This document shows positions 3,078 to 32,000 of a stretch of 32,000 bases of DNA, in pieces (within the stretch, counting starts at the first letter, position 1; every line of letters begins with the position of its first letter). The position numbers and the translations under genes are program-made. This DNA is from an uncultured bacterium (GTDB lineage: Bacteria; Patescibacteriota; Gracilibacteria; UBA1369; PNNO01): positions 330,001-362,000 of the forward strand of contig OY969931.1 in the NCBI GenBank assembly GCA_963704705.1, read 5' to 3'. The notes below the pieces were generated by a model, which saw only the letters and a program-made list of their open reading frames with translations, was not told the origin of the DNA and did no database searches.

Positions 3078-3125
3078 ACTCGCGGCCTTTTTCTGTTAAT
3101 AATACTGCGACATTATTCAAAGAAA

Positions 3126-4031
3126 ATGGACATTACATCCACAATTAAGGGCTTTCTTGAGGAATCGAAGTTACTCAATAAAAAACCGCTTCTTGTGATT
3201 TTAGGGGGAACAGCTTCCGGCAAAACCGCATTTTCAATAAAAATTGCAAAAGAATTTGATGGCGAAGTTATTTCAACTGATTCACGTCAAATTTATAAAT
3301 ATATGGATATTGGAACTGCAAAAGTAACACCGCAGGAAGCGCAGGGAATTCCGCACTATATGATTGATTTTGTTGACCCTGCTCAGGAATTTACTTTGGC
3401 GGATTTTGTGAAAACAGCAAAAAAATATATCGATTATATTCATTCAAAGGGAAAATTGCCTATTTTGGCTGGCGGGACAGGACTTTATACACGTGCGATT
3501 TGTGACAACTTTGATATACCTTGCGTACCGCCAAATACTAAATTGCGTGAAGAGCTTGATAAAGAAGATCCTCAAAAATTACATGACAGATTAATTGAGC
3601 TGGATCCTGAAGCTGCTAAAAACATCCATCCTAACAATAAAAGGTATGTAATAAGGGCAATTGAAAGAGCGATGGCTGGTAAAAAACCAACAAAAACTCC
3701 AAATTCCGATTTTAATATATTAAAATTTGGCATTGAGTGGGATAGAGAAAAATTATATGAAAGAATCAATACAAGAGCCGCTAATCAGATAGAAGAAGGT
3801 CTTATTAATGAAACAAAAACACTTCTTTCAAAAGGTTATAATGAAAAATTGCCGTCTATGTCCAGCCTTGGATACCCTGAAATGATAAAATATATAAGAG
3901 GAGAGCTTAGTCTTGATGATGCATTGGAACTTCTTCAAAAAAATACCAGGAATTATGCTAAAAGGCAGTTAACGTGGTTCCGGCGCGAACCAGATGTGAT
4001 TTGGCTTAACGGAGCCACTTTAAGTAATTAA
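3126..4031 (+). CDS. miaA: tRNA dimethylallyltransferase
   Basis: P-loop GGTASGKT, then STDSRQIYKYMDIGTAKVT and LAGGTGLY, plus the C-terminal YAKRQLTWFR motif. All are characteristic of MiaA. Confidence 0.93.
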   Translation: MDITSTIKGFLEESKLLNKKPLLVILGGTASGKTAFSIKIAKEFDGEVISTDSRQIYKYMDIGTAKVTPQEAQGIPHYMIDFVDPAQEFTLADFVKTAKKYIDYIHSKGKLPILAGGTGLYTRAICDNFDIPCVPPNTKLREELDKEDPQKLHDRLIELDPEAAKNIHPNNKRYVIRAIERAMAGKKPTKTPNSDFNILKFGIEWDREKLYERINTRAANQIEEGLINETKTLLSKGYNEKLPSMSSLGYPEMIKYIRGELSLDDALELLQKNTRNYAKRQLTWFRREPDVIWLNGATLSN

Positions 4032-4033
4032 AT

Positions 4034-5680
4034 ATGTCAGTACTTGGTAAAAAATGGGAAATTAAAAACACTTCTGAAAAAAGTGTTATTGATAAAATTT
4101 GTGAAAATAGAGGACTTTCTGACCCGAATGATTTAACGCAATTTTTGGAACCTGATTTTGAAAAAGATTTTCATGATCCTTTTTTGCTTCCAGGAATGCA
4201 AAAAGCAGTTGACCGTATAAAAAAGGCAATTGCAGATAAAGAAAGAATTATGATTTATGGAGATTATGATGTTGATGGAATTAGCGGTACAGCAATTATG
4301 TTTATAGCATTGGAAAAACTCGGAGCCCAGGTTTCTTATCGATTGCCTCACAGAGTTAATGACGGTTACGGCTTGAGTGCTAAATTTATTAGCGAGTTTA
4401 ATGATGTTAATGTAAAACTTCTTATTACTGTTGATTGCGGAATTTCAAATGCTGATGAAATTGCAAAGGCAAGCGCAAAAGGCATTGATGTAATTATCAC
4501 AGATCACCATACGATTCCTGAAAAATATCCGAGTGCTGCATACGAGATTGTGCATCCTCTACGTCCAGACAGCAAATATCCATTTAAAAAATTAACTGGT
4601 GCAGGAGTTGCATTTAAAGTTGCGCAGGCATTATTTGGTAAAGATCCTTTTGTTTATGAATTGTTGGATTTAGCAAGTCTTGGAACTGTTGCTGATTGCG
4701 GGCCTATTATTGGAGAAAACCGATTAATTGTTAAAAAAGGTTTGGAAATTTTGCCTCAAACCAGATGGGAAGGTTTGAAATCATTGCTTGAAAGTGCAGG
4801 GGTTGATACTGAGCGACCTTTGAATACTTTTACAATTGGTTATCAGATCGCGCCGAGAATAAATGCTGCGGGAAGAATTGATTCACCTTATTATGCACTT
4901 CAATTGTTAGTTAAAGAAGATGCTAAAAATCTTGCTGATAAATTAGAGAGTCTAAATCGAAAACGTCAGGATATGTTGAAAAAAGCTCTTGATGATGCCG
5001 AAAAACGATATGTTGAGAGCGATGATAATTATTTGATAATAGAGCATGATAAGCAGTGGCATGTTGGGATTATCGGGCTTGTTGCCGGTAAGTTGGCGGA
5101 AAAATTTAATAAACCTGCAATTATTTTACAGGATTTTGATGATTATCTCGTTGCATCAGCCAGAAGTCCTCAATTTTTTAATATTGTTGAAGCACTTACT
5201 GAACATAAAGATTATTTAATGCATTTTGGAGGTCATGCGCAGGCAGCTGGTTTCAATATTAAAAAAGATCGATTTGAAGATTTCAAAAAAGCTATTAAAG
5301 AATATGCGAAACAAAAATTACAAAGCAGTGAAATTGTTTCAAGTCTGGCTATTGATTGCGAAATTTTACCTGAAGAAATGAATTGGGAAACTTTTGAATT
5401 TATAAGGTCGCTGGAACCCTATGGAATTGCAAATGAAAGGCCTATTTTCTTGCTTAAAGATGCTGTGATTCAGCACGCTAAGGTTGTCGGGAAAGATGAA
5501 AAGCATTTATCTATTTATATTAATAAAGGCGGCGTTAATATTAGAGGCATTGGCTTTAATTTAGGTGAACATGCGGAATACGTCAGGAATCAGAGGTCTT
5601 TGGACGTGGTTTTTCAACTCGATGAAAATCAATGGAAAGGACAAAGCAGTCTCCAAATGAAAATTTTGGATTTTGGTTGA
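4034..5680 (+). CDS. recJ: single-stranded-DNA-specific exonuclease RecJ
   Basis: 548 aa. DHH motifs (IYGDYDVDGISG, DCG, ITDHH), the RecJ-typical APRINAAGR motif and the DHHA1 motif GGHAQAAG. Confidence 0.9.
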   Translation: MSVLGKKWEIKNTSEKSVIDKICENRGLSDPNDLTQFLEPDFEKDFHDPFLLPGMQKAVDRIKKAIADKERIMIYGDYDVDGISGTAIMFIALEKLGAQVSYRLPHRVNDGYGLSAKFISEFNDVNVKLLITVDCGISNADEIAKASAKGIDVIITDHHTIPEKYPSAAYEIVHPLRPDSKYPFKKLTGAGVAFKVAQALFGKDPFVYELLDLASLGTVADCGPIIGENRLIVKKGLEILPQTRWEGLKSLLESAGVDTERPLNTFTIGYQIAPRINAAGRIDSPYYALQLLVKEDAKNLADKLESLNRKRQDMLKKALDDAEKRYVESDDNYLIIEHDKQWHVGIIGLVAGKLAEKFNKPAIILQDFDDYLVASARSPQFFNIVEALTEHKDYLMHFGGHAQAAGFNIKKDRFEDFKKAIKEYAKQKLQSSEIVSSLAIDCEILPEEMNWETFEFIRSLEPYGIANERPIFLLKDAVIQHAKVVGKDEKHLSIYINKGGVNIRGIGFNLGEHAEYVRNQRSLDVVFQLDENQWKGQSSLQMKILDFG

Positions 5681-7227: not shown

Positions 7228-7976
7228 TCCACTTTCTCCATCACTTCCTCCGATATATCAAAGTTGCTGTAAACATTTGATACATCATCGTCTTCTTCGA
7301 GCGCGTCCATGAATTTGAGGATTTTTTTGGCTTTATCAACATCTGTGATTGCAACAGTTGTTTCGGGGACATAGGTCAGTTCAGAAGATTCAACTTGAAA
7401 ACCCGCATCTTCCAAAGCTTTTTTGACTGTATGTAAATCGTTTAATGCAGTATAAATATCAACAGAATCATCGCCTCTTTCAATATCTTCAGCACCTGCA
7501 TCAATTGCGGCAAGTTCAATATCATCAAATTTTGAAGGATCAGCTTTTACCAAAATGTAACCCTTTTTATGAAAAAGATAAGCAACACTGCCTGCACCGC
7601 CCATGTTACCGCCGTGTTTGGTAAAAATACTTTTTACATTTGCAACAGTTCGGTTTTTGTTGTCGGTAAGAGCCTGAATGTAAACTGCTATTCCAACAGG
7701 TCCGTATCCTTCATACATAACCTCGCTGAAGTCAGCGCCATCTTTTAATTCTCCTGTGCCGCGCTTAACTGCTTTTTCAATATTGGTATTTGGCATATTA
7801 GCTGCTTTTGCATTATCAATTGCTGATCGAAGAGCAGAATTCATTTCCGGATCACCGCCACCTTCTTTTGCTGCGATTGTGATTAACTTTGAATGCATTG
7901 TGAAGATTTTTCCTCTTTTTGCATCTGCTGCGCCTTTCTTGTGTTTAATTGAGTGCCATTTGCTGTGTCCAGACAT
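7224..7976 (-). CDS. yebC: YebC/PmpR family DNA-binding transcriptional regulator
   Basis: The N-terminus MSGHSKWHSIKHKKGAADAKRGKIF is diagnostic of the family, and the 250-aa length is typical. Confidence 0.93.
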   Translation of the reverse strand: MSGHSKWHSIKHKKGAADAKRGKIFTMHSKLITIAAKEGGGDPEMNSALRSAIDNAKAANMPNTNIEKAVKRGTGELKDGADFSEVMYEGYGPVGIAVYIQALTDNKNRTVANVKSIFTKHGGNMGGAGSVAYLFHKKGYILVKADPSKFDDIELAAIDAGAEDIERGDDSVDIYTALNDLHTVKKALEDAGFQVESSELTYVPETTVAITDVDKAKKILKFMDALEEDDDVSNVYSNFDISEEVMEKVD

Positions 7977-11124: not shown

Positions 11125-12462
11125 TTAGTAAACGAGTTCACCCGGAGTATATCGGTCCAGGTTTTTCTTGCCGATTTTTTCGATAAGTTCATCAATGATC
11201 TGATCAAATTTAACTATCTCCTGACTTCCTTTTTTCATATTTCTAATGATAGCGGTTCCTTCACGAACTTCAGTAATTCCAACTATCACGGTATAAGGAG
11301 CATCAAATTTATCAGCCATTTTTAGTTGTTGTTTCATAGCACCTTTTCCTAGTGCACCAATTGTTTTAATTCCTGCTTCGCGCATTTCATCAATTAGCTT
11401 TAAACATTTCTTTTTTGCTTCTTTGCCAAGCTGAGCAACAAAAACATGTACATCATCTTTTGAAGGAACTCTGATTTTTTCACGTTTCATGTGAGCAATA
11501 ATTCTTTCAATCCCTGCCGCATATCCTACTGCAGGTGTAGGCTGGCCTCCCATTAATTCAACCAGTCCGTCATATCTTCCTCCGCCTCCAATAGCGTTTT
11601 GCGCGCCTTCTTTATTATCCCAGAATTCAAATACGATATGAGTGTAATAATCCAATCCGCGAACAAGTCTTGGATTTTCAGTATATTTAATATCCATTTC
11701 ATCCAAAAACTCTTTTACATCCTGATAGTATTCCAGGCTTTCTTTAGATAAATAATCAGTCATCTTAGGTGCAAGTTCTGCTAGTATCATGCAGTCTTCA
11801 TTTTTGCAATCAAGTAATCTTAATGGATTTTGCTCAAGTCTGCTTTTGCAATGTTCGCATAATGAACGCTCTTTACCGTAATAATAATCTTTAAGGGCCT
11901 GAATGTATTTTTTTCTGTCTTCAAGCGAACCGATTGTGTTTAATTGAATATCAAAAAGCTTTTCAATTCCCAAGTCTTCATTTATTTTATTAGCCAAAAA
12001 TATTACCTGCGCATCCAATGCAGGGTCTAATTCACCAATCATCTCAAAACCAAATTGCCAGAATTGTCTGTATCTGCCTTTTTGAGGACGATCATACCGA
12101 TACATCGCATCAATATAATAAAGCTCAACAGGCTGAGGAAGCTGGTTCATGCCATGTTGTATATACGCTCTTACAACACCGGCAGTATTTTCAGGCCTTA
12201 AAGTTAAACTTCGTCCTTTTTTATCCTCAAAAGTGTACATTTCTTTTTCAACTATATCAGTGGCATCACCAATACTACGTACAAATACATCAGTATATTC
12301 AAAAGCAGGAGTTGTAATTCTTTTAAATCCAGCTTGTCGTAGTCTATGACGAACAACCTTTTTAATGTAAGTGTGGAATTCGTGATCCATTGGAAGAATA
12401 TCGTGTACGCCTTTTGGTGTTTGATAAGGAGGCTTTACAGAAAAGTTCGTTTCGTCATTCAT
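11125..12462 (-). CDS. hisS: histidine--tRNA ligase
   Basis: 445 aa. Class II synthetase motifs in the HisRS pattern (PKGVHDILP, LRPENTAGVVRAY, YRYDRPQKGRYRQFWQFG, GGGRYDGL) plus a C-terminal anticodon-binding domain. Confidence 0.95.
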   Translation of the reverse strand: MNDETNFSVKPPYQTPKGVHDILPMDHEFHTYIKKVVRHRLRQAGFKRITTPAFEYTDVFVRSIGDATDIVEKEMYTFEDKKGRSLTLRPENTAGVVRAYIQHGMNQLPQPVELYYIDAMYRYDRPQKGRYRQFWQFGFEMIGELDPALDAQVIFLANKINEDLGIEKLFDIQLNTIGSLEDRKKYIQALKDYYYGKERSLCEHCKSRLEQNPLRLLDCKNEDCMILAELAPKMTDYLSKESLEYYQDVKEFLDEMDIKYTENPRLVRGLDYYTHIVFEFWDNKEGAQNAIGGGGRYDGLVELMGGQPTPAVGYAAGIERIIAHMKREKIRVPSKDDVHVFVAQLGKEAKKKCLKLIDEMREAGIKTIGALGKGAMKQQLKMADKFDAPYTVIVGITEVREGTAIIRNMKKGSQEIVKFDQIIDELIEKIGKKNLDRYTPGELVY

Positions 12463-22996: not shown

Positions 22997-24409
22997 ATGA
23001 AACTTGAGTTTATTGGTGCTGCCAAGGAAGTTACGGGTTCAAAGCACCTTTTGCACGTGAATGGCAAGAAAATACTTTTAGATTGCGGAATGTTCCAGGG
23101 TAAACGTAAAGAAGCCTACGATAAGAACATGAATTTCCCTTTTAATCCTTCTGAAATTGACGCTGTTATACTTTCTCATGCGCATATAGACCATAGCGGA
23201 CTTTTGCCATTATTATGTAAACAAGGATTTAAAGGACCTATTTATTCAACATTTGCCACACGCGATTTATGCCATTATATGCTTATGGACAGTGCTTATA
23301 TACAAGAACGTGAAGCGGAATATCTAAATAAGAAAAAGGAAAAACACGGCGAAGAACCAATTGAACCAATATATACAACAGATGATGCTGAACAGGCATT
23401 AAGTCAGTTTATTGGTATGGGTTATGAGCGTACTTTCACTGTTGAAGACGCTTTGGCAGCTTGTTTTTATGATGCAGGTCATATCTTGGGTTCGTCAGTT
23501 GTACATATAATTGTTTATGAAAAAGATATAGATAAAAGAACTACATTAGGCTTTACAGGTGACCTTGGTCGTAAGAATATCCCACTTTTAAGAGATCCGC
23601 AGCCAATGCCGCCATCTGAATTTTTTATTACGGAAACAACATACGGAAATCGTTTACATGAAGCTTTTGATCAGTTGGATGCACAGCTTATTGATATAGT
23701 TAATAACACTTATAAAAAAGGCGGAAAGCTGATAATTCCCGCTTTCTCGGTTGGCAGAACACAGGAAGTTGTGTACAGACTTAATGTAGCAGTTAAAGAC
23801 AAGCTTATTCCTGAATTCCCGATTTTTGTGGATAGTCCTTTGTCAGGTAATATTACAGAAGTTTTCTCGGCACATCCTGAATGTTTTGACCGTGAGGTAT
23901 ACCGTGAATTTATTGATAACCGCTTAAATCCGTTTGGATTTGGAAAAGTAAAGTATATTACAGATGTTGCTGAATCAAAAAAACTTAATACATATGACAA
24001 ACCATGTATTATTATTTCAGCTTCAGGAATGTGTGAGTTCGGACGAATTCTTCATCATTTGAAAAATAATATAGAAGACCCGCGAAATACTGTATTGCTT
24101 GTTGGATATCAGGCTGAAAATACTTTGGGCCGAAAAATTCAGGATGGAATGAAAATTGTAAATATTTTTGGAGAACCTTATGATGTGAAATGTGATGTTC
24201 ATAAAATAGATGCTTTCTCAGCGCATGCTGATCGAAGCGATTTGATTGACTACGTGAGTCATATTAAAGGAATTAAACAAATATTCCTTGTACATGGCGA
24301 AATCGATTCGCTTAATGCATTTCAAAATGTTCTTCACGAGAATGGCTATGACAACGCAATGATTCCTTCTCCAGGAGATATTGTCGATTTGACTGACAGT
24401 AAGCTTTAA
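22997..24409 (+). CDS. beta-CASP family metallo-beta-lactamase-fold ribonuclease
   Basis: Motifs MKLEFIGAAKEVTGS and HAHIDHSG, beta-CASP motifs (ETTYG, AFSVGRTQE, SAHAD) and a C-terminal RNA-specificity region. 470 aa. Confidence 0.88.
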   Translation: MKLEFIGAAKEVTGSKHLLHVNGKKILLDCGMFQGKRKEAYDKNMNFPFNPSEIDAVILSHAHIDHSGLLPLLCKQGFKGPIYSTFATRDLCHYMLMDSAYIQEREAEYLNKKKEKHGEEPIEPIYTTDDAEQALSQFIGMGYERTFTVEDALAACFYDAGHILGSSVVHIIVYEKDIDKRTTLGFTGDLGRKNIPLLRDPQPMPPSEFFITETTYGNRLHEAFDQLDAQLIDIVNNTYKKGGKLIIPAFSVGRTQEVVYRLNVAVKDKLIPEFPIFVDSPLSGNITEVFSAHPECFDREVYREFIDNRLNPFGFGKVKYITDVAESKKLNTYDKPCIIISASGMCEFGRILHHLKNNIEDPRNTVLLVGYQAENTLGRKIQDGMKIVNIFGEPYDVKCDVHKIDAFSAHADRSDLIDYVSHIKGIKQIFLVHGEIDSLNAFQNVLHENGYDNAMIPSPGDIVDLTDSKL

Positions 24410-24432
24410 AGCTTAGTTGTATGCAATTAATA

Positions 24433-24460
24433 TTGATATTTATTCTAAGTTCGATATAAT
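24433..24460 (+). promoter_or_regulatory. candidate promoter of the tRNA-Gly gene
   Basis: TTGATA (24433-38), 16-nt spacer, TATAAT (24455-60), about 35 nt upstream of the tRNA. Confidence 0.4.
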
Positions 24461-24494
24461 GCTTTTTGCACTTCCAGTATTGATATTTGAATGT

Positions 24495-24569
24495 GCGGGT
24501 ATAGTATAATGGCTATTATGTTGGCCTTCCAAGCCGAAGATACGGGTTCGATCCCCGTTACCCGCTCCA
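24495..24569 (+). tRNA. tRNA-Gly, anticodon UCC, with genomically encoded CCA
   Basis: Folded by hand. Acceptor GCGGGTA/TACCCGC, D arm GTAT-AATGGCTA-TTAT, anticodon arm TTGGC-CTTCCAA-GCCGA, 4-nt variable loop, T arm ACGGG-TTCGATC-CCCGT, discriminator T, CCA. 75 nt. Confidence 0.93.
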
Positions 24570-24572
24570 AAC

Positions 24573-24609
24573 AAAAATGACAAGCCTAGCGCTTGGCATT
24601 TTTCGTTTT
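24573..24609 (+). terminator. rho-independent terminator after tRNA-Gly
   Basis: ATGACAAGC (24577-85) / GCTTGGCAT (24591-99) pair at 8 of 9 positions. The stem has an A-run before it and TTTTTCGTTTT after it. Confidence 0.55.
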
Positions 24610-24645
24610 GGTGTGGGGAAAGGTTGGAGCGCAGCCGTAGGGTTG

Positions 24646-24687
24646 CCTTAAGCATGCGTACGAACGAAGTGAGTCGGATGATTAAGG
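24646..24687 (+). other. conserved hairpin element, copy A (structured RNA or folded-DNA recombination site, unassigned)
   Basis: Outer stem CCTTAA (24646-51) / TTAAGG (24682-87). Inner stem CG(T)AC (24657-61) / GTCG (24673-76). Apical part GA-AC-GAA-GT-GA. Confidence 0.5.
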
Positions 24688-24715
24688 ACAGCGAAGTGAA
24701 CGAAGTGAGCGTAGA

Positions 24716-24737
24716 TCGATCCCCGTTACCCGCTCCA
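24716..24737 (+). repeat. 22-nt perfect direct repeat of the tRNA-Gly 3' end (T-loop through CCA; equals 24548-24569)
   Basis: TCGATCCCCGTTACCCGCTCCA occurs at 24548-24569 and again at 24716-24737. The second copy lacks the 5' strand of the T stem, so it is not a tRNA. Confidence 0.9.
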
Positions 24738-24843
24738 TTAGGTTCGAACCAAGAATAGCCCTTTCTGTAGAGGAAAAGGGTTGTTATGTGTGTGAGTGGG
24801 GTTTAAATAAAGTGAATAAGACATTGTGTATTTATTTCAAAAT

Positions 24844-24871
24844 TTGATTGAACGGAAAATTAAGTTATAAT
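24844..24871 (+). promoter_or_regulatory. candidate promoter of the 24893 ORF
   Basis: TTGATT (24844-49), 16-nt spacer, TATAAT (24866-71). Confidence 0.35.
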
Positions 24872-24892
24872 TTAATAAATTAAATATTTATC

Positions 24893-25408
24893 ATGGTAGA
24901 AATTAATGGAAATGAATTTGAACAATTATCTGATGAAGAGGTTAACGCTCTATGGGATGAAACTTTTCCAGTTACAGAGGTGCCAACTGATCTTACAAAT
25001 GAGAATAAAAGGGCGGCTTTAGAAGATATTGGATTTAAAGGATTTGAAATAAGCCAGCTCTCTGATAAGCAGGTCGACTATGTATGGGAAAAGTATCATG
25101 CATCTAGAAAAGTACCAACTGACTTCACAATCGAAATGAAAAGGGCGGTTTTGGAAATTAGAAGGCATCAAATAGCTCAAATATCTGATGCAGATATTGA
25201 TATTCTGTGGAAAAAGACTGTTTCAGATATAGAAGTAACAGCTTCAATAAAGGATATAAGAAGAATGATTTTAGAAAGAATTCAGAGTAATCCAAAACTA
25301 CTAGTCAGTGCAAAGGGACTTGTTAAAAGTAGCGAAGCATTAAGAAAGCATCACGAAGATTTTCGTAGACGAGAATTGTTAATGAGAGAGTGGGGAACTT
25401 TGGATTAA
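24893..25408 (+). CDS. hypothetical protein built from three ~40-aa internal repeats plus a basic helical C-terminus
   Basis: The repeats are FEQLSDEEVNALWDETFPVTEVPTDLTNENKRAALEDI, FEISQLSDKQVDYVWEKYHASRKVPTDFTIEMKRAVLEI and HQIAQISDADIDILWKKTVSDIEVTASIKDIRRMILERI. No signal peptide and no known family recognised. Confidence 0.65.
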   Translation: MVEINGNEFEQLSDEEVNALWDETFPVTEVPTDLTNENKRAALEDIGFKGFEISQLSDKQVDYVWEKYHASRKVPTDFTIEMKRAVLEIRRHQIAQISDADIDILWKKTVSDIEVTASIKDIRRMILERIQSNPKLLVSAKGLVKSSEALRKHHEDFRRRELLMREWGTLD

Positions 25409-25442
25409 AAAAGTTCTAACATCGTTGCAGGTGGAGCTCCAT

Positions 25443-25477
25443 AAAAAACGACTGGCCTTAGGGTCAGACGGTTTTTT
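25443..25477 (+). terminator. bidirectional rho-independent terminator
   Basis: AAAAAA, then CGACTGGCC (25449-57), TTAG, GGTCAGACG (25462-70), G, TTTTTT. One A-A mismatch and one G-U pair. Confidence 0.6.
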
Positions 25478-25504
25478 ATTAGACGTTAGAAATGGTTCCC
25501 GTTG

Positions 25505-25543
25505 CTTGATAGCGCGGCGAATGAAATGAGCCGGACTAACAAG
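25505..25543 (+). other. conserved hairpin element, copy B
   Basis: Outer stem CTTG (25505-08) / CAAG (25540-43). Inner stem CGGC (25515-18) / GCCG (25530-33). Apical part GA-AT-GAA-AT-GA. Confidence 0.5.
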
Positions 25544-25555
25544 TACGCTTTAGTG

Positions 25556-25567
25556 TACCCGCTCCAA
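25556..25567 (+). repeat. 12-nt copy of the tRNA-Gly acceptor 3' strand plus CCA plus A (equals 24559-24570)
   Basis: TACCCGCTCCAA at both sites. Confidence 0.7.
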
Positions 25568-25587
25568 GCTTTTCACTTAATAACCCC

Positions 25588-25616
25588 TTGAAGAATATTG
25601 ATTATATCTTTATAGT
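25588..25616 (+). promoter_or_regulatory. candidate promoter of the module-3 SLH gene
   Basis: TTGAAG (25588-93), 17-nt spacer, TATAGT (25611-16). It is preceded by AACCCC, as is the promoter at 19547. Confidence 0.45.
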
Positions 25617-25646
25617 GATTTTTGGTATTATTTAACCTAATTTATC

Positions 25647-26639
25647 ATGAGAAGTGTTATCAGAGCGGCACTGATTCTTGCGTGCTTGTTTGCTGTGGCA
25701 CCATTGGTGTTTGCTGATATAGCAATACCTACCACTACTACTGTTTATTTCCAAATGAACGGACAGTCCTATGAAAAGCCTGTAGATTATACGGTGAATT
25801 GTTACGGTTATAATTATTCGCCTGACTCAATGGAAGCTCCTGCAGATTATGATCCAGCAAATCCGGATCTAGTTTATACATATCAGGCTTCTTGTCCTGA
25901 ATATGGCTGCGAAATAGATGAAGGATATTATTTGAATTATCGTCACATTGACTCTTGTGATGTTGAAGGGGAAACCGACGGAATGGTTTTTAAAATTGAG
26001 AATTATGCAACCACTCCATTACCTGAAGATTGTGAAGGTGACGGACTTGGAAGAACCTGTACCCAAACTTTTGACATTCCTGAATTAACCGAGCCTGAAC
26101 CTGTTTTTACTGATGTAGATTCTGGTAATAAATATGTTGAAGCCATCGGGTATGTGAAAGACGCAGGTATTGTTGAAGGATACGAAGACGGAAGTTATAA
26201 ACCTGATAGTGATATAACAAGAGCTGAATTTACAAAGATTATTATTGAATCAGCATATTCTGATACTGAAATTCAAGACTGTGTCCCTACAAAGGTTTAC
26301 CCTGATATCCCAACTGATGAATGGTATGAAAAATATGTATGTGTTGCCACCAACAATGGTATTATTGAAGGCTATCCGGACGGTGAATTTAAAGGTATAA
26401 ATAAAATAAATTTTGTTGAAGCAGCTAAAATTATTTCTCTTGGATTTAATTTTGAAGTTGGGTCGGCTATGTCTGGAGAGCAGTGGTATGTGCCATACGT
26501 TGAACTTCTTCAGTCAAAAAATGCAATTCCTGCAGATATAGATGCTGTGGATCATGACGTAACAAGAGGAGAAATGGCTGAAATGATTTATCGCCTTAAA
26601 GAGGAGATAACTAATAAACCCTCATCTCAATTACTTTAA
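25647..26639 (+). CDS. secreted SLH-domain protein with a Cys-rich N-terminal domain
   Basis: Signal peptide MRSVIRAALILACLFAVAPLVFA. The N-terminal ~150 aa contain 8 Cys. SLH-like repeats follow (FTDVDSGNKYVEAIGYVKDAGIVEGYEDGSYKPDSDITRAEF; YPDIPTDEWYEKYVCVATNNGIIEGYPDGEFKG; a third is degenerate). Confidence 0.8.
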   Translation: MRSVIRAALILACLFAVAPLVFADIAIPTTTTVYFQMNGQSYEKPVDYTVNCYGYNYSPDSMEAPADYDPANPDLVYTYQASCPEYGCEIDEGYYLNYRHIDSCDVEGETDGMVFKIENYATTPLPEDCEGDGLGRTCTQTFDIPELTEPEPVFTDVDSGNKYVEAIGYVKDAGIVEGYEDGSYKPDSDITRAEFTKIIIESAYSDTEIQDCVPTKVYPDIPTDEWYEKYVCVATNNGIIEGYPDGEFKGINKINFVEAAKIISLGFNFEVGSAMSGEQWYVPYVELLQSKNAIPADIDAVDHDVTRGEMAEMIYRLKEEITNKPSSQLL

Positions 26640-26648
26640 AAAAGCAAT

Positions 26649-27002
26649 ATGATTTATGAGACAAAGTTCTTAATATCACTTGCTCTTACTCTCATAATCG
26701 AAGTACCTCTCGTAGTCTTGATGGTTAAATATATAATCAAACTACGGGAGGTTTCTTTATGGAAAATAATTTTTGTAGCTTTTCTTGCTTCCGCGACCAC
26801 GCTGCCATATTTATGGTTTGTTATCCCACCTTATGTAGATGCCAGATTTTATATTTTATATGGTGAAATATTTGTGGTTGTGACCGAGGCATTTATCTAT
26901 AATCAGCTGCTAAAATTAAATATTATAAAAGCACTTCTTCTTTCAATAACCGTTAATTTAATTTCGTATTATTTAGGGAGACTAATTCTTGGATTATTTT
27001 AA
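26649..27002 (+). CDS. hypothetical small integral membrane protein (117 aa, about 4 TM)
   Basis: Starts 10 nt after the SLH gene. The hydrophobic helices carry conserved-looking acidic residues (IIEVPL, GEIFVVVTEAFIY). No His or Cys. No family recognised. Confidence 0.6.
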   Translation: MIYETKFLISLALTLIIEVPLVVLMVKYIIKLREVSLWKIIFVAFLASATTLPYLWFVIPPYVDARFYILYGEIFVVVTEAFIYNQLLKLNIIKALLLSITVNLISYYLGRLILGLF

Positions 27003-27035
27003 CTGGGATTATTATTAGCGAAAAAAGTTCTAACA

Positions 27036-27083
27036 TTGTTGTTTAAGCATGCGGTGAATGCGCAGCATGAACCGGAGTAGCAA
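27036..27083 (+). other. conserved hairpin element, copy C
   Basis: Outer stem TTGTTG (27036-41) / TAGCAA (27078-83, with G-U pairs). Inner stem CGGT (27052-55) / ACCG (27071-74). Apical part GA-ATGC-GCA-GCAT-GA. Confidence 0.5.
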
Positions 27084-27086
27084 TTT

Positions 27087-27096
27087 CCCCGCTCCA
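27087..27096 (+). repeat. fourth core copy, CCCCGCTCCA
   Basis: CCCGCTCCATT is shared with the copy at 24729-24739. It lies 1 nt from the stop codon of the convergent minus-strand gene. Confidence 0.6.
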
Positions 27097-27097
27097 T

Positions 27098-27619
27098 TTA
27101 AACATCTGGAAGCACTCCAAGCGAATCATTGAATCTGTTAATGAAGTTGAAAAGACCAATAACACTTGTTATTTCTACTATTTGTTCATCTGTAAAGTTT
27201 TCTTTCATGCCGTTAAAAACTTTCTTTTCAATATTGTAAGCATGGCAGGTTGATGCCTGAGTATATTTCATGGCGATTATTTCTTTTTCGTTATCAATTT
27301 TGCAAATTTTCTCGATTTCCTCATCGGTAAGCCCAAAATTCTTTAGTTGAATTTTAGCCACACTAACGCAAAATTCACATTTATTAAGTTCGGAAATTTG
27401 ATAAGCGACTTTCCATTTCAATAGTCTTTCAACTTTGCCTTCTCCCATGGTTGCCTGGAATAAATCAAAAAATCCAAGCATGATTTCTTCACGATTTGCC
27501 ATTACTCTTAACCATTTTGGAACATTTCCTGTAGATTTTTTAATTTGTTCAAATAAATCTTTTGCTTTGCCTTTTACTTCATCATCAGTAACAAGGTGTA
27601 CTAGAGGATCATTGGTCAT
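27098..27619 (-). CDS. carboxymuconolactone decarboxylase / AhpD-like family protein
   Basis: 173 aa, helical, with the CxxC-type motif of the family in the context SELNKCEFCVSVAKIQLKNFG. Confidence 0.78.
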   Translation of the reverse strand: MTNDPLVHLVTDDEVKGKAKDLFEQIKKSTGNVPKWLRVMANREEIMLGFFDLFQATMGEGKVERLLKWKVAYQISELNKCEFCVSVAKIQLKNFGLTDEEIEKICKIDNEKEIIAMKYTQASTCHAYNIEKKVFNGMKENFTDEQIVEITSVIGLFNFINRFNDSLGVLPDV

Positions 27620-27935
27620 TTTTAGTTTGGTTAATAATAGAAGTTAATGCATCAGATACTTTACCGTTAAATTCATTGTACTTAAGCCCTCTTTCTTCAA
27701 GAGCGCCTGTCATTTTAGGTCCGAATTTACCTGCAATCACAATATTAACTTTTTTATCTGCAAGCATTTTGACAACGCTAAATCCTGCTCCTCCACTACC
27801 AAAGCTGAATGGATTTTTAATTGTTTCTAATAGTTCTTCAGATTCATTGAAAATAAGATAATAAGGAGATCTGCCTGCTTTTTCATCTACGGCATCAGCT
27901 TTTGTTTTTCCAGTTGAAGCAATTGCTACTTTCAT
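27609..27935 (-). CDS. NifB/NifX-type (dinitrogenase FeMo-cofactor-binding fold) small protein
   Basis: 108 aa. MKVAIASTG...AGRSPYYLIF...GGAGFSVVKMLADKKVNIVIAGKFGPKMTGALEERGL matches the architecture of stand-alone NifX-like domain proteins. Confidence 0.78.
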   Translation of the reverse strand: MKVAIASTGKTKADAVDEKAGRSPYYLIFNESEELLETIKNPFSFGSGGAGFSVVKMLADKKVNIVIAGKFGPKMTGALEERGLKYNEFNGKVSDALTSIINQTKNDQ

Positions 27936-28444
27936 TTTTTTTTGGTTAATAATAAATGTTCGATAATTAGACCGTTAATTATTGAAAAGAGAATCATATA
28001 TATAGTTAAAATAATTACAAACGCTGATCCAAAATAATAAATCATCATTGGTAATAGGGGGATTTTAACAGCTCTGTTATAAAGAAAAATTACAATTAAA
28101 GAGTTTTTTACGCCTTTATCTTTTAAATCCGAAAGCAAGGGATACCACATATAAATTGGTCCTGATGATAATATTCCGAAGATAACAGAGAAGATATAAC
28201 CTTTTACACCAGATTCGTGACCTAACATTTTAGTTATCCTTTTTGAGTTCAGGAATAGATTTGAGATAAACATAAGTAGAAACACGATCACCAAAATCGG
28301 CAGAATTGAAACAACAAGACTGACAAAAGTATTTAAAGAATCAAAAAACAGAGGAGTATTAAAAACTGCAGATATTAAATAAGTGACTGTTACTATTATG
28401 AATAACTTAAGGCCACCGTCTGTTTTTACTAAAAGATTCTTCAT
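27932..28444 (-). CDS. predicted permease, C-terminal-half subunit (ArsP/DUF318-like two-component permease)
   Basis: 170 aa, 4-5 TM. Translationally coupled (4-nt overlaps) to both the upstream half and the downstream NifX-like gene. Family call is by architecture and resemblance only. Confidence 0.55.
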   Translation of the reverse strand: MKNLLVKTDGGLKLFIIVTVTYLISAVFNTPLFFDSLNTFVSLVVSILPILVIVFLLMFISNLFLNSKRITKMLGHESGVKGYIFSVIFGILSSGPIYMWYPLLSDLKDKGVKNSLIVIFLYNRAVKIPLLPMMIYYFGSAFVIILTIYMILFSIINGLIIEHLLLTKKK

Positions 28445-28869
28445 AAGAAAAATTGAAGAGTAATGGTTGTTAAAATCGCTATTAAAATTGCAGAAATGAA
28501 AGCAAGGATATTGCGATAAATTGTAAATTTTTTTCCAAGCATGAGAGATTCAGCAGGTAGCTGTACAACGCCCACAGTTACCCAGGTTAAAATGAATGCA
28601 GTAACCGCAACAAGGCTAATCCCCTGATTTATAAATTCTCCTCCTAAAATATAGCTATTTATTGGATTTCCTAGTGCAATACTTCCTAAAATAGCCCCAA
28701 TTATTGGATCTAAAAGGTTGTTTCCGGTAAATATTTGTTTAAAAAAGTCTTTTGGAATTGCATTAATTAAAAAAGAAATCAGAAGCAGAATTGCAATAAT
28801 TATTGGTATGCTTTTTTTTAGGGCATTGCAAGTTTGCTTTGCTGAATTTTTTATATTTATTAAATTCAT
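28441..28869 (-). CDS. predicted permease, N-terminal-half subunit (ArsP/DUF318-like)
   Basis: 142 aa, 4 TM. The segment DPIIGAILGSIALGNPINSYILGGEF is reminiscent of this permease family. Confidence 0.55.
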   Translation of the reverse strand: MNLINIKNSAKQTCNALKKSIPIIIAILLLISFLINAIPKDFFKQIFTGNNLLDPIIGAILGSIALGNPINSYILGGEFINQGISLVAVTAFILTWVTVGVVQLPAESLMLGKKFTIYRNILAFISAILIAILTTITLQFFL

Positions 28870-28874
28870 ACATT

Positions 28875-28891
28875 AATAAGCTATGCTTATT
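28875..28891. promoter_or_regulatory. 17-bp perfect palindrome next to the operon start codon; candidate operator
   Basis: AATAAGC-TAT-GCTTATT lies 6 nt upstream of the ATG (28869-28867, minus strand) and downstream of a TTGACT box (28905-28900, minus strand). Confidence 0.3.
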
Positions 28892-29049
28892 ATTTTGAGA
28901 GTCAATATTAAATTACTTTAATTCTGTTATAATAAACTAGTAATAGTTAAATGTTTTTTTTGCTGTGGAAATGTTAGTCCCATGTCCTGCAAATCCATGT
29001 TCTTCATCAAAAAAATTTTCTATTTCAGCCTGTAATTTTTGGTATTATA

Positions 29050-29256
29050 TTGGTTGAATATCATAATATTTGGGTTTGGGATTGGATTGTTCTTATTACA
29101 ATAACTGGATGGGGTTTGCTTATTGGAGGTATTTTACTTACCATCTTTCCAAAGTTTATGTCTTTTCCTAAGATACTTTTTGATAATTCTAAACTATGGG
29201 GAGTACTTGCTTTAGTAGTTGGAATTATATTCGGATATTTTGGATTTATAATCTAA
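29050..29256 (+). CDS. hypothetical small membrane protein (68 aa, 2 TM, TTG start)
   Basis: Two clear hydrophobic helices. No other support. Confidence 0.4.
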   Translation: MVEYHNIWVWDWIVLITITGWGLLIGGILLTIFPKFMSFPKILFDNSKLWGVLALVVGIIFGYFGFII

Positions 29257-30737
29257 GCCTCAACATGAACTTCAGCTGTTTTATTTAAATCTATCTTAGA
29301 AATAAACAGTGCGAGAATTGCTCCTATAAATACAATTATTGCCGAGGTAGTATAAACAGTGTCATAGCCATTGATTTGAGCCTTTAATGAAATCAATCCA
29401 ACAAACTGTTGATATTGATTTATGGTTGTTCCAAAAAAGCTGCTTAATGATGCGATATTAAGCGCATGGTTTCCAATTGATGAATTTAACAAACTTCCAA
29501 ATATTGCTATTCCGAAAGCACCTGCGATGTTACGTGCAAGCGCAAGTATTGACGAAGCAATGCCTATTTCATGATTCGGAACTACTGCTGCAATAATATT
29601 TGTTCGTTGAGCCATTCCAAATCCCATTCCAAACGCCATTATGGTCAATGGAATTATTATATCCAGTGTTGTTGAGCGGGCATCCAGTCCGGTGAATAAG
29701 TACAGACCTAAAGCCGCAACCGCTGTGGAGGCGGCAATTACATATTTCGGCTGGATCTGTCCCGTGAGTTTCCCCCCTAGTGCTGCGGCGATCATCATGG
29801 CGGCAGCCATAGGCATAAAAAGATAACCGGTTTGTGTTGCGTCCAATCCAAGAAAGGTCTGGGCAAAAATCGGCACAAGAAACAGGCTGCCCATCATTCC
29901 CATAAATATAATGAAATTGTTTATTATTGTTTGAACGAAAATTTTATTTTTAAAGAATTTCAAATCAACAATAGGTTCTTTTTGATTTTTTTCAATATGA
30001 ACAAATGTGAACAGACCGACAATAACAACAAAATAACTTATTAAACTGTTTATACCCAACCATCCCCAGTCTTGGCCTTTATCTAAAACAAGAACTAAAG
30101 CCGAAAGTGCAATACCTAAAATTATGGCACCCTTAAGGTCAAATCCCGCTATTTTTTTGTGTGATTTGGATTCTGCAATAAAAGCCATTGCCATAAAAAG
30201 TCCGATTATACCTATTGGAAGATTAATCAAGAATACAGATCGCCAACCAAAAGTATCAATTAAAGGTCCGCCTATTAAAGGCCCAAAAACAGCAGCAGCT
30301 GCAAATGATGCCGACCATATACCAAGTGCTTGTGAGCGTTCTTTATTGTCAGTGTAAGTAACCGCAAGAATTGCCATGGCAGTAGGATAATCAGCTGAAC
30401 CCGCAATCGCCTGAATAATTCTGAAAACAATCATTGAAGATAAATTCCAGGCAAAACCAGCGAGAATTGATCCGACAATAAATATCGAAAAACCCAGAAT
30501 ATATATTTTTTTTCTTCCCAAAATATCACCGAGCTTTCCCCAAACAGGTACAAAAATAGCATTTGCTAAAATATAAGCTGTTGCAATCCAGCCTGCAGAG
30601 CTGACAGAAATATGAAAATCATTTATTATATGCGGTAAACCAAGGTTTACAATAGTTTGATCAAGCCTTCCCAAAAACGTACCAATAATAACGGTAAGAA
30701 GAATTAATCCTTTTGGTATACCTTTTTTCTCAGCCAT
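29253..30737 (-). CDS. MFS transporter, DHA2 (EmrB/QacA-like, 14-TM) drug:H+ antiporter family
   Basis: 494 aa. LDQTIVNLGLPHI and WGKLGDILGRKK (MFS motif A), a GP-rich motif C (AAAAVFGPLIGGPLID) and a 14-helix layout. Confidence 0.88.
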   Translation of the reverse strand: MAEKKGIPKGLILLTVIIGTFLGRLDQTIVNLGLPHIINDFHISVSSAGWIATAYILANAIFVPVWGKLGDILGRKKIYILGFSIFIVGSILAGFAWNLSSMIVFRIIQAIAGSADYPTAMAILAVTYTDNKERSQALGIWSASFAAAAVFGPLIGGPLIDTFGWRSVFLINLPIGIIGLFMAMAFIAESKSHKKIAGFDLKGAIILGIALSALVLVLDKGQDWGWLGINSLISYFVVIVGLFTFVHIEKNQKEPIVDLKFFKNKIFVQTIINNFIIFMGMMGSLFLVPIFAQTFLGLDATQTGYLFMPMAAAMMIAAALGGKLTGQIQPKYVIAASTAVAALGLYLFTGLDARSTTLDIIIPLTIMAFGMGFGMAQRTNIIAAVVPNHEIGIASSILALARNIAGAFGIAIFGSLLNSSIGNHALNIASLSSFFGTTINQYQQFVGLISLKAQINGYDTVYTTSAIIVFIGAILALFISKIDLNKTAEVHVEA

Positions 30738-30740
30738 ATT

Positions 30741-31385
30741 TTATTGTTTATAAATCCAGACTTTTGCTGACATGCCATCTTTAAAATGAGGATAATTATT
30801 CTGGTTATATTTGATTTTTATATCAAAATTTTTAATTTCGCGTTTGTCAGAAATACTAAAAACAACATCGTCAGAATTACTTATTTCTTTTACTTCTTCA
30901 ACAGTTCCTTCAAATTCCTCAGTACCGAATACATCAACTGTGAATTTAACTTTTTGCCCTTCATGGATATCTTTTAAACCCTTGTCTTCGGGGATGCTGG
31001 CTACAATACGCATTTCAGCAGGATCGTACATTGTTACAACAGCCTGTCCTGGATTATAGATCGCTCCAAAATCCTGTTTAACTGTTGCTATTATTCCTGG
31101 AATTTCAGCGGAAATAATGTCATAGCCAACTTTTGCGACTGATTCATGAGCCTGTACTTTTTGTCCTTCTTGTACATAAATTTCTTTAAAAACACCTTTC
31201 TCTTCAGGAGTAAGTTGAATTAATGGCACACTAACTACTGCTTTATCAGAATAAATATATTTTTGCGAATCCAGCCAATATAAAACTCCCACAACTGTAC
31301 CTATAATAATAAATAAAAGTAATATAGGAATTGCTATTTTGCGAACATTTTGCTGGCTTGATTTTGGTTTATCTTCTTGTTCCAT
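30741..31385 (-). CDS. HlyD/EmrA-type membrane-fusion (periplasmic adaptor) protein, short form
   Basis: N-terminal TM anchor, a biotinyl-lipoyl-like hairpin (GVFKEIYVQEGQKVQAHESVAKV) and a beta-barrel C-terminus. It sits immediately upstream of the MFS gene (3-nt gap). Confidence 0.75.
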   Translation of the reverse strand: MEQEDKPKSSQQNVRKIAIPILLLFIIIGTVVGVLYWLDSQKYIYSDKAVVSVPLIQLTPEEKGVFKEIYVQEGQKVQAHESVAKVGYDIISAEIPGIIATVKQDFGAIYNPGQAVVTMYDPAEMRIVASIPEDKGLKDIHEGQKVKFTVDVFGTEEFEGTVEEVKEISNSDDVVFSISDKREIKNFDIKIKYNQNNYPHFKDGMSAKVWIYKQ

Positions 31386-31418
31386 AACAGTATCTGTAAC
31401 AGGATTTTTTTAGTAGCT

Positions 31419-31497: not shown

Positions 31498-32000
31498 TTA
31501 TTGATCCTCACTTTCAGTTTTTACCTCGGTTTTAGGCGGTTCTTCAAGTGTTACCTTTACATCTTCTTCCTTATCTTTATGCATTATTTTTAGTGTAACT
31601 GTGTCACCGACATTTTTTGATCCGACTATTTTAGCCAATGATTTGCCGTCATTAAGTTTTTCGCCGTCAACTTCAAGAATAATATCATTTTCAACAATAC
31701 CAGCTTTATCTGCCGGAGAACCGGGGATTACAGCCAGTTCTTCAGCTGTTTGGCCTCTCTGGACAAGATCACCATAATCAACTGTTAGATTATTCTTTTC
31801 TTTAATTGAATCAGTTATCGGAATATATCTGATTCCCAAGTAAGGTCTTATTATTCTGCCGTTTTTGATTACAGAATCAACAGCTTCTTTTATTGTATTT
31901 GAAGGAATTGAAAAACTGATATTTTCTCCGTTTGCAATTGCCACATTCACACCTATAACCTTGCCCTGTAAATTTAGCAAAGGTCCGCCTGAATTACCCG
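31498..32000 (-). CDS. HtrA/DegP-family serine protease, C-terminal part (the N-terminus lies beyond the window)
   Basis: The frame is open to the window edge. The catalytic-serine motif GNSGGPLL is encoded at 31998-31975, followed by a PDZ domain (YLGIRY...GSPADKAGI...DIILEVDG). The track start at 31980 is an internal Leu codon. Confidence 0.88.
   Translation of the reverse strand, partial: GNSGGPLLNLQGKVIGVNVAIANGENISFSIPSNTIKEAVDSVIKNGRIIRPYLGIRYIPITDSIKEKNNLTVDYGDLVQRGQTAEELAVIPGSPADKAGIVENDIILEVDGEKLNDGKSLAKIVGSKNVGDTVTLKIMHKDKEEDVKVTLEEPPKTEVKTESEDQ

Follow-up and report, generated by a model that had tools for sequence, protein, structure and literature searches.

tRNA-anchored tandem islands are already known. 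In the genomic islands inserted at ssrA (ssrA-GIs) of Dehalococcoides, attL is overlapped by the gene for a DsiB/CcrB-like large serine recombinase, which runs into the RNA gene, short direct repeats of the RNA gene's 3′ end flank the tandem islands, islands without an integrase can be mobilised in cis, and a conserved motif that does not match the target gene lies just upstream of the repeat (PMC3146451). The tycheposon islands of Prochlorococcus are hypervariable and tRNA-adjacent, with partial tRNA copies between the insertions, and most of them lack an integrase at any one time (10.1101/2020.12.28.424599). Here we describe a hypervariable, tRNA-anchored array of cassettes or islets, with cassettes of one or two genes, in a 32,000-nucleotide stretch of DNA from an uncultured bacterium (contig OY969931.1, positions 330,001–362,000; the whole stretch is called the window), together with a family of hairpin units carried by some of the sites at which the cassettes end. 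The host and the relatives used for comparison, the loci of which are denoted by L and a number, belong to a marine Peregrinibacteria/Peribacteria lineage of the candidate phyla radiation (CPR).

The array is anchored by a tRNA-Gly(TCC) gene, the 3′ end of which (GGTTCGATCCCCGTTAC CCGCTCCA) is the prototype for all downstream sites. A cassette-end site is about 30 nt long and consists of a left arm (AGTTCKAACATCGTT, tRNA counterpart GGTTCGATCCCCGTT, consensus AGTTC(T/G)AACATCGTT), a centre, and a right arm. The right arm is GAGCTCCA or, where it matches the tRNA 3′ end, CCGCTCCA. The sites begin with AGTTCKAACATCGTT and finish in G(A/C)GCTCCA. The centre is exactly 7 nt long, mostly GCAGGTG or TACTAAG, and free of a hairpin in 17 of the approximately 30 catalogued sites. 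The sequence CCCGCTCCA, which the preliminary description of the hairpins had not recognised as the 3′ end of tRNA-Gly(TCC), has five exact copies in the window (0.07 expected), four of them in the locus. Repeats of the tRNA 3′ end on the same strand comprise an exact 22-mer at 24716–24737, the 10-nt ACCCGCTCCA extending to 25566, and the 9-nt CCCGCTCCA at 27088–27096. Because the tRNA 3′ end recurs and each of the three hairpins of the window sits just 5′ of one copy, positions 24570–27096 represent modules inserted behind the tRNA gene. The intact tRNA gene, the direct 3′-end repeats that bound the inserts, and the presence/absence and shuffling polymorphism with breakpoints at these repeats are features of integrative elements targeted to tRNA genes and of accreted, cis-mobilisable islets.

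In three of the related loci (L095, L010, and L102), large serine recombinase genes extend over the 3′ end of tRNA-Gly, an arrangement that recalls the ssrA-GIs and, similarly, the staphylococcal cassette chromosome (SCC) composite islands at rlmH. Unlike in those islands, the modules described here are only 0.1–2.4 kb long, contain 0–3 genes, and in several cases include their own promoter-like site; no recombinase is within reach of the array, the layout of the site as arm, 7 nt, and arm is fixed, and some sites carry a structured hairpin insert, for which no counterpart has been described there. The array shares with tycheposon-seeded or Islander-type tRNA islands the hypervariable tRNA-adjacent DNA in streamlined marine bacteria and the partial tRNA copies that act as separators. 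However, a tycheposon spans several kb and brings along its own replication genes and a tyrosine or serine recombinase, whereas the separators here are a diverged, conserved tRNA-like site with a 7-nt centre and hairpin units. The similarity to integrons lies in the cassettes, most of them with a single gene and all terminated by a recombination site, and in the variable sequence and conserved structure of the site. Like attC, the hairpin is imperfectly palindromic, containing mismatches and a bulged base, and it is predicted to fold as single-stranded DNA in a strand-specific manner. In contrast to integrons, there are no RYYYAAC/GTTRRRY boxes at the junctions and no IntI among the array-adjacent open reading frames (ORFs) tested, the array is anchored by a tRNA gene instead of attI, cassettes contain promoter-like sites, and the top strand is the stable one. 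Unlike the attC fold, that of the unit is optional, and the arms of the site are not complementary. We rejected identity with an integron attC on the basis of the absent core boxes, the lack of IntI, and the optional fold. In the literature that was searched, there was no description of miniature one-gene cassettes, of an arm–7 nt–arm site that mimics a tRNA, or of a hairpin insert.

The three hairpin units of the window are located on the + strand:

24646–24688, +: unit A, type 1; supported by folding and by a match of the covariance model R1 at 24642–24692 (65.8 bits)
25500–25549, +: unit B, type 2; supported by folding and by R1 (66.8 bits)
27037–27083, +: unit C, a chimera; supported by folding, alignments, and R1 (48.1 bits)

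The preliminary description had placed the hairpins at 24646–24688, approximately 25503–25546, and approximately 27037–27083, in agreement with the positions listed here. From the outside in, unit A is composed of the stem CCTTAA/TTAAGG, a G·A mismatch, CAT/ATG, a G·G mismatch, CG(T)AC/GTCG, tandem GA/GA, and the apex AC-GAA-GT. Unit B consists of TGCTTG/CAAGTA, an A·A mismatch, TAG/CTA, an internal loop with G·G, CGGC/GCCG, tandem GA/GA, and the apex AT-GAA-AT. Its nearest relative, L003 11720–11769, has CGGT/ACCG and AC/GT, which are compensatory changes. In unit C, the 5′ arm aligns with type 1 (TTTAAGCATGCGGT) and the 3′ arm with type 2 (ACCGGAGTAGCAA), and the CGGT/ACCG inner helix is followed by tandem GA/GA and the apex ATGC-GCA-GCAT, which contains GCGCAGC. 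Three nested helices had been proposed for each hairpin. Folding reproduces those of units A and B, including the GA…GA bracket, the 2-bp apical helix, and the GAA triloop, whereas in unit C robust folding is limited to the inner and apical helices, and the outer stem TTGTTG/TAGCAA is weak and unconvincing. The units are richer in GC than their surroundings, as had been pointed out (0.45–0.52 compared with approximately 0.35 in the window).

Rfam 15 was searched with the window at the gathering score, with positions 24400–27300 at E ≤ 10, and with six related loci, and the only matches were to tRNA, none of them overlapping a hairpin; the preliminary description had likewise recognised no known RNA family. 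The hairpins are not intrinsic terminators: GTACGAC… or CCGCTCCA comes next, without a run of T, and separate canonical terminators are located upstream. A hammerhead ribozyme or k-turn was rejected because of sequence misfit and the lack of a match in Rfam, and a weak match to IS009 at 27137–27270 on the − strand (23.7 bits against a threshold of 117 bits) was judged to be due to chance.

The fold energies of single units are only modestly unusual, with z-scores from −0.6 to −2.2 under RNA and from −0.5 to −3.0 under DNA parameters, and three copies alone therefore prove nothing. The covariance-model scan that had been proposed was carried out with model R1, which recovered 12 units from the window and the five related genomes L003, L004, L005, L097, and L098 (alignment A2). 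A thirteenth unit (L005 7339–7409) is 89% identical to L005 3114–3184. The 13 units belong to four sequence types. Seven units were aligned independently with MAFFT (alignment A1). In A1, 86.6% of the cells are paired, compared with 26–34% in slid registers, both sides change in 8 of the 16 pairs, and the covariation score was reached by none of 500 shuffles. The corresponding values for the 12 units of A2 are 87.3% against 25–34%, changes on both sides in 10 of the 16 pairs, and again none of 500 shuffles. The apical helix occurs as AC/GT, AT/AT, GC/GC, GTAC/GTAC, or ATGC/GCAT, closed by a triloop GAA, GCA, or, in one unit from L097, TTT, and in type 3 the apex is enlarged by an insert of 19 nt. 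All 12 aligned units retain the tandem GA/GA bracket and the G·G mismatch, and 11 of them a G·T closing pair. The three hairpins are thus members of one structure-conserved family with genuine compensatory changes, as the preliminary description had maintained for the changes and the bracket. The fold is thus under selection, or at least actively maintained. In L098, a 20-nt repeat (GACGGAGCGAAGCGTAGTGC) occurs twice in tandem at 11690–11729, each copy with a GCGAAGC mini-hairpin.

The modules and cassettes that contain the units, and the other features of the array, are the following:

24495–24569, +: tRNA-Gly(TCC) gene, the anchor of the array (ARAGORN; Rfam tRNA, 65.5 bits)
24570–24737, +: module A, non-coding
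24573–24603: bidirectional intrinsic terminator of module A (canonical terminator at 24581–24595)
24622–24636, +: hairpin 0 of module A, GGTT-GGAGCGC-AGCC, followed by GTAGGGTTGC and then unit A
24689–24715, +: partial second copy of the apex (ACGAAGTGA) in module A, without a stem
24716–24737, +: exact 22-nt repeat of the tRNA 3′ end in module A
24738–25441, +: cassette B, with one ORF
24738–24802, +: conserved 5′ leader of cassette B, TTAGGTTCGAACCAAGAATAGCCCTTTCTGTAGAGGAAAAGGG
24844–24871: promoter-like site of cassette B
24893–25408, +: ORF of cassette B, 171 amino acids, without a family match
25412–25441, +: canonical site of cassette B without a hairpin, formed by AGTTCTAACATCGTT (25412–25426), GCAGGTG, and GAGCTCCA (25434–25441)
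25442–25566, +: module B2, non-coding, with an intrinsic terminator (25452–25467) and T run, GGTTCCCGTTGC, unit B, GTACGC-TTTA-GTGTAC, and CCCGCTCCA (25558–25566)
25567–27096, +: cassette C, with two ORFs
25588–25616: weak promoter-like site of cassette C
25647–26639, +: ORF of cassette C, 330 amino acids, with SLH domains
26649–27002, +: ORF of cassette C, 117 amino acids, a membrane protein without a family
27021–27096, +: hairpin-bearing site of cassette C, formed by AAAAAAGTTCTAACATTGTT (27021–27040), unit C, and CCGCTCCA (27089–27096)

The tRNA-Gly gene is preceded by a promoter-like sequence, TTGATA-16-TATAAT, at 24433–24460. Homologues of module A follow the tRNA in L003, L004, L005, L098, and L099, and are found in the middle of the array at L004 16096–16287 and L097 7377–7545. 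Nine of the units reside in such non-coding A-type modules, in which an intrinsic terminator is followed by hairpin 0 or a short tRNA-like stub, the unit, often a second hairpin (GCGTTC-GNAA-GAACGC), and a tRNA 3′ fragment. The 3′ part of module A is clearly derived from a tRNA T-arm and acceptor; a tRNA pseudogene or tRNA-like RNA spanning the module was dropped, since neither ARAGORN nor Rfam detects one.

The arrangement of the array differs among relatives in a manner that locates the breakpoints. In L083, which lacks module A, the tRNA runs straight into the same leader that comes after the module in the window and in L004, and the junction falls exactly at the tRNA repeat. A cassette encoding an ABC-F protein is 96.8% identical over 1939 bp between L003 and L097, with different neighbours, and the homology spans from GCTCCA to …ATCGTT. 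In the L003 site behind this cassette, a type-1 left arm is joined to a type-2 centre (CACTAAG), and this hybrid site points to exchange at the arm/centre junction. The comparisons indicate that the sites are discrete recombination joints and that cassettes are shuffled among genomes with breakpoints inside the sites. Four one-gene cassettes are packed within 2.2 kb in L083, and nine site-delimited modules follow the tRNA over 9.6 kb in L097, where seven of the nine sites are near-identical canonical sequences of about 30 nt. The same cassette of approximately 520 bp occurs twice in the L097 array (2588–3162 and 3472–4049, 87% identity), and cassettes can therefore duplicate and diverge within an array. 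An inverted-repeat site of the Xer/dif type with an 11-6-11 layout was rejected, as the arms are not inverted repeats of each other. A scan for the site motif AAAAGTTCKAACATYGTTGC gave no match in viral contigs and matches at five loci in metagenome contigs, of which L083 is the only true relative.

Upstream of the array, the gene order SLH, CapA, beta-CASP RNase, and tRNA-Gly is conserved in relatives, and the succession of beta-CASP gene and tRNA-Gly is kept in L002–L010. Downstream of the tRNA, by contrast, the content differs completely from one relative to another, and no cassette or gene of the right flank of the window was present in relatives over the 10 kb next to the tRNA. In the relative represented by L090 and L092, the beta-CASP protein is 94% identical, yet the DNA right behind the tRNA differs. 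Exact-protein look-ups of the cassette proteins of the window returned only the same sample (L001 and L087) and thus no second context for cassettes B and C. Many contigs of independent metagenome assemblies (L001, L087, L090–L094, L100, and L101) break within approximately 100–270 nt past the beta-CASP gene, at tRNA-Gly or shortly beyond it. The assembly of the window's sample is itself interrupted at the locus, with L001 ending behind the tRNA and L087 beginning in cassette B. These contig breaks fit the presence of repeats and population heterogeneity at the locus.

The 13 units are distributed over 12 sites, and all of them follow …GTT(G/T)GC, which is the arm/centre junction or the equivalent GTTGC of the tRNA-like fragment. 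Every unit has the orientation of the tRNA (+ strand). A search with R1 of both strands of approximately 316 kb (the window and 23 related loci, including L087, which is a second assembly of the window's sample) detected units only in tRNA-like sites, and three hairpin-derived patterns gave either no matches in viral contigs or chance ones inside GC-rich coding sequence. The units mark the ends of variable modules, as had been suggested, but they are not a constant part of them, being absent from 17 of the approximately 30 catalogued sites. The site behind the same ABC-F cassette carries a unit in L097 and none in L003. L003 also contains two units in tandem, each terminating in GTGTGC. The tail of the unit, GTACGACG(A/G)AGTGTGC, resembles the left arm (AAGTACGACGAAGTGTGC compared with AAGTTCGAACATCGTTGC, 11 of 18 positions identical by eye), and the arm-like tail (AAGTACGACGAAGTGT) re-creates a site of arm, centre, and right arm at the 3′ side of the unit. 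Dispersed palindromes of the REP/BIME or MITE type were rejected, as R1 matches in the approximately 316 kb searched are confined to tRNA-like sites and to the + strand. The ends of IS200/IS605-type (HUH) elements were rejected because each unit has a single hairpin, the tested ORFs have no transposase domains, and hairpin-less sites exist.

Several observations bear on whether the fold acts as DNA or RNA. The site keeps its tRNA-like orientation even where the ORF points in the opposite direction, as in L083 (367–1008, −) and L005 (5932–7251, −, before the hairpin site 7323–7424). Hairpins A and B each come after an intrinsic terminator and before the next promoter-like site, and all nine non-coding modules begin with a terminator-like hairpin and T run, as judged by eye. 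Under DNA parameters, the + strand gave a more stable fold than the − strand in each of the five units compared. Triloops of the C-GNA-G or T-GNA-A type with a 2-bp stem (N[C/T]-GNA-[G/A]N) occur six times on the + strand and never on the − strand of 370 nt of modules, compared with about one expected. The heptamer d(GCGNAGC) is a documented extra-stable DNA mini-hairpin; triloops closed by C-G with G and A at their ends are a hallmark of DNA, not RNA, stability; and GNA mini-hairpins are present in the complementary-strand origin of phage G4, in ssiA of RSF1010, and in N4 promoters (PMC13037366). Sequence matches to the heptamer are GCGCAGC at 24629 and 27060, and GCGAAGC in L003, L004, L097, L098, and L099, whereas 24664 and 24700 have the C-GAA-G core. 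The apices GCGAAGC, GCGCAGC, ACGAAGT (C-GAA-G core), and ATGAAAT (T-GAA-A), the sheared G·A flanks, and the strand-specific fold thus resemble d(GCGNAGC) mini-hairpins and folded single-stranded DNA sites such as CTX attP and ssi, a likeness seen at the level of sequence. Because the orientation follows the site, terminators precede the units, the + strand is favoured, and the apex is that of a DNA mini-hairpin, the unit more likely functions at the level of DNA. The preliminary description had left the choice between RNA and attC-like single-stranded DNA; folded single-stranded DNA is the better option, although the unit is not an attC. It had also anticipated a discrete transcript ending at CCCGCUCCA, which is unlikely for units A and B, each having an intrinsic terminator just upstream.

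The enzyme that acts on the sites may belong to a group of large serine recombinases found at tRNA-Gly genes of related loci:

L095 11541–13271, −: large serine recombinase ORF
L096 2703–4430, −: large serine recombinase ORF
L010 11841–13352, −: large serine recombinase ORF
L102 10001–11590: large serine recombinase ORF

The recombinase of L095 and L096 has 576 amino acids, contains Resolvase, Recombinase, and Zn_ribbon_recom domains, and its gene overlaps the 3′ end of tRNA-Gly and is followed by a primase-like gene. A large serine recombinase with 31% identity overlaps the tRNA-Gly 3′ end in L010, and one with 63% identity, at the end of a prophage in L102 and L103, abuts tRNA-Gly(GCC). The family has thousands of members in Patescibacteria, and the L095 protein has no close relative in viral contigs. 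The recombinase ORFs run into tRNA-Gly, so that their last approximately 18 codons correspond to the 3′ half of the tRNA gene in reverse complement, and the C-terminus of the recombinase therefore changes on excision. The same C-terminal peculiarity is reported for DsiB of Dehalococcoides (PMC3146451). A supposed recombinase remnant in module A of L003 was discarded, since its likeness to the recombinase C-terminus is that of the tRNA-encoded tail. In L010 (11888–13700), tRNA-Gly(TCC) and tRNA-Gly(GCC) are each followed by the same sequence of about 40 nt (AACGGAAAATTC.AACTTTTTTGCGGC…); behind the first tRNA gene this sequence forms the end of a complete serine recombinase gene, and behind the second it is only a remnant, which looks like two successive integrations or a duplication. 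No hairpin unit was detected with R1 in the recombinase loci L095/L096, L010, and L102/L103.

We favour, at about even confidence, the explanation that the unit, which measures roughly 50 nt, is an optional, strand-specific folded-DNA module of the recombination sites of the array, which is read by the recombination machinery or an accessory protein. The top strand would extrude as a stable hairpin when the site becomes single-stranded or supercoiled, and extrusion would be favoured by the G·T pairs, the tandem sheared G·A pairs, and the C-GNA-G mini-hairpin apex. The fold might then be recognised by, or modulate, the site-specific machinery that inserts and excises cassettes, so that the unit would act as an accessory or spacer module of an att site, conceptually akin to the folded attP of phage CTX or to the variable centre of a folded attC. 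The large serine recombinase lineage is most likely the enzyme, and we infer that it moves cassettes of the window type in trans. A number of points weigh against this explanation. Serine recombinases use double-stranded DNA and are not known to need folded sites. Neither Pfam nor NCBIfam searches of cassette, flanking, and large unknown ORFs detected a recombinase in the window or within 10 kb of hairpin-bearing arrays; the large unknown ORFs searched include those next to the repeats at L005 3298–4590 and L004 16326–17945, which are unrelated to each other. The candidate lineage is linked to the arrays by its locus only. With 17 of the approximately 30 sites functioning, or at any rate persisting, without a unit, it cannot be required for recombination. 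Whereas the R″ and R′ boxes of attC pair with each other, the arms of the present site show no mutual complementarity. A 55-bp unit is too short for excision as a duplex circle, which makes it physically problematic to regard the unit as a mini-cassette. Moreover, the pair counts of the 12-unit alignment lean towards the model to which it was fitted, although the MAFFT alignment agrees, and the sample consists of few genomes from one lineage.

The optional occurrence of the unit would also be expected if it were a selfish element or a mechanistic by-product, that is, a palindromic scar or mini-insert left by imprecise recombination, half-site duplication, or template switching, the arms of which are kept complementary by quasi-palindrome correction. 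Such an origin could account for the tandem units of L003, the internal duplications (the second ACGAAGTGA of window module A and the 20-nt repeat with GCGAAGC in L098), the appearance of the unit tails and the second hairpin as degenerate copies of the left arm or T-arm, and the chimeric unit C with its broken outer stem. However, the GA/GA bracket and the G·G mismatch are invariant and the G·T pair nearly so across four types that differ at 10 of 16 pairs, palindrome correction would remove mismatches instead of keeping them, and the bracket is retained while the length of the apical helix varies; we consider this origin unlikely. A structured RNA, such as a small RNA or a hairpin with a protein-binding or stabilising role within the 3′ part of cassette transcripts or the tRNA trailer, is distinctly improbable. 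The covariation with G·U pairs is strand-specific and on the sense strand of the tRNA and cassettes, tandem G·A pairs are common protein-binding motifs in RNA, and the second hairpin of the relatives has GNRA tetraloops. Unit C is located in the 3′ untranslated region of ORF 26649–27002 with no terminator between them, and a role as RNA, unlikely in general, would be likeliest there. Nevertheless, units A and B and the homologous modules lie right behind strong intrinsic terminators with no promoter-like site ahead, the orientation tracks the site and not the neighbouring gene, there is no Rfam match even at E ≤ 10, most cassette 3′ ends lack a unit, and GNA triloops closed by C-G typify DNA stability (PMC13037366).

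The strict strand-specificity of the fold is compatible with a signal for single-strand priming, similar to an origin, in which a DNA hairpin serves to convert single-stranded entering or excised DNA to duplex before integration. Known priming origins contain GNA mini-hairpins (PMC13037366), and the tRNA-Gly-integrated element of L095 encodes a DnaG-type primase zinc ribbon. Yet the units occupy very small non-coding modules and the ends of some cassettes instead of replicative elements, they are absent from the elements of L095/L096 and L102, and beyond the triloop there is no likeness to known ssi or sso sequences, so that we hold a priming function to be very unlikely. We give equally little credence to a duplex palindromic binding or crossover site of a dimeric recombinase, in which the seemingly compensatory changes would reflect co-variation of half-sites. 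An imperfect inverted repeat of about 40–45 bp resembles the att sites of large serine recombinases in length, and unit C looks like a hybrid of type-1 left and type-2 right halves, as attL and attR products do. Against this stand the coexistence of three variants in one genome, the apical helix of 2–4 bp and the 19-nt insert of type 3, which change the spacing of the half-sites, the conserved GA that is direct and not inverted on the two arms, and the difference in fold stability between the + and − strands.

The explanation of the unit as a folded-DNA module of the sites can be extended to the locus as a whole. The array may represent an integron-like gene-capture platform of a new kind in marine Peregrinibacteria, in which single-gene cassettes, several with their own promoter-like site, would be inserted and shuffled. 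It would be built from a tRNA-Gly 3′ end, a site of about 30 nt that mimics the tRNA, and a trans-acting large serine recombinase lineage distributed across the CPR, with the hairpin as the counterpart of the attC fold that tunes or directs recombination. We offer this more inclusive proposal tentatively and regard it as rather improbable in its full form.

Many otherwise unrelated cassettes open with a common 5′ leader (TTAGGTTCGAACCAAGAATAGCCCTTTCTGTAGAGGAAAAGGGTTG; TTAGGTTCGAACC…CCCTTTCTGTAGAGGAAAAGGG). Copies are located at 24738–24802 in the window, L004 11706–11798, L005 5826–5931, L083 297–364, and in L097 from 2642, 3529, 5172, and 11728. Within the leader are GGTTCGAAC, which is T-loop-like, and the hairpin CCCTTT/AAAGGG, which scores as a terminator on the − strand (24780–24759). 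The leader might serve as an insulator or form the right-hand half of the recombination site; some cassettes have their own promoter-like sites. Hairpin 0 is found upstream of the unit in the long-form modules of the window (24622–24636), L003, L004 (from 16143), L097 (from 7430), L098, and L099. Its stem of 4–5 bp covaries (GGTT/AGCC, GGCT/AGCC, and ACGGC/GCCGT), and the sequence (T)GGAGCG(C/A)A in its loop complements the CGCTCCA core of the site approximately 100 nt downstream; a long-range pairing or kissing interaction is therefore possible. The 171-residue ORF of cassette B contains an internal repeat of about 132 nt (25003 compared with 25135, …GAAAAGGGCGG(C/T)TTT…), which corresponds to modules of about 44 residues. 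Downstream of the array, the genes at 27097–31400 are all on the − strand and encode a CMD protein, a NifX-like protein, halves of an ArsP-type permease, an MFS protein, and HlyD. A PDZ/HtrA-like gene (31579–32000, −) is the only downstream gene in common with a relative (L002 8566–8987, +), with 72% nucleotide identity and the opposite orientation. This flip suggests either an inversion or that 27097–31400 is also variable DNA without recognisable sites.

If the unit is a folded-DNA module as we favour, it would be a further case, beyond attC and CTX attP, of a site conserved as a strand-specific DNA fold, and it may provide a new pair of recombinase and site for genome engineering. Even if the unit is no more than a structural scar, the comparisons still locate the breakpoints in a hypervariable region at which metagenome assemblies fragment. 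The cargo of the arrays includes surface proteins with SLH domains, toxins, and transporters. CPR bacteria, or Patescibacteria, have tiny genomes, and their acquisition of genes is little understood. A tRNA-anchored array of one-gene cassettes with a compact, conserved recombination site would offer a concrete and testable route of gene flux in these organisms.

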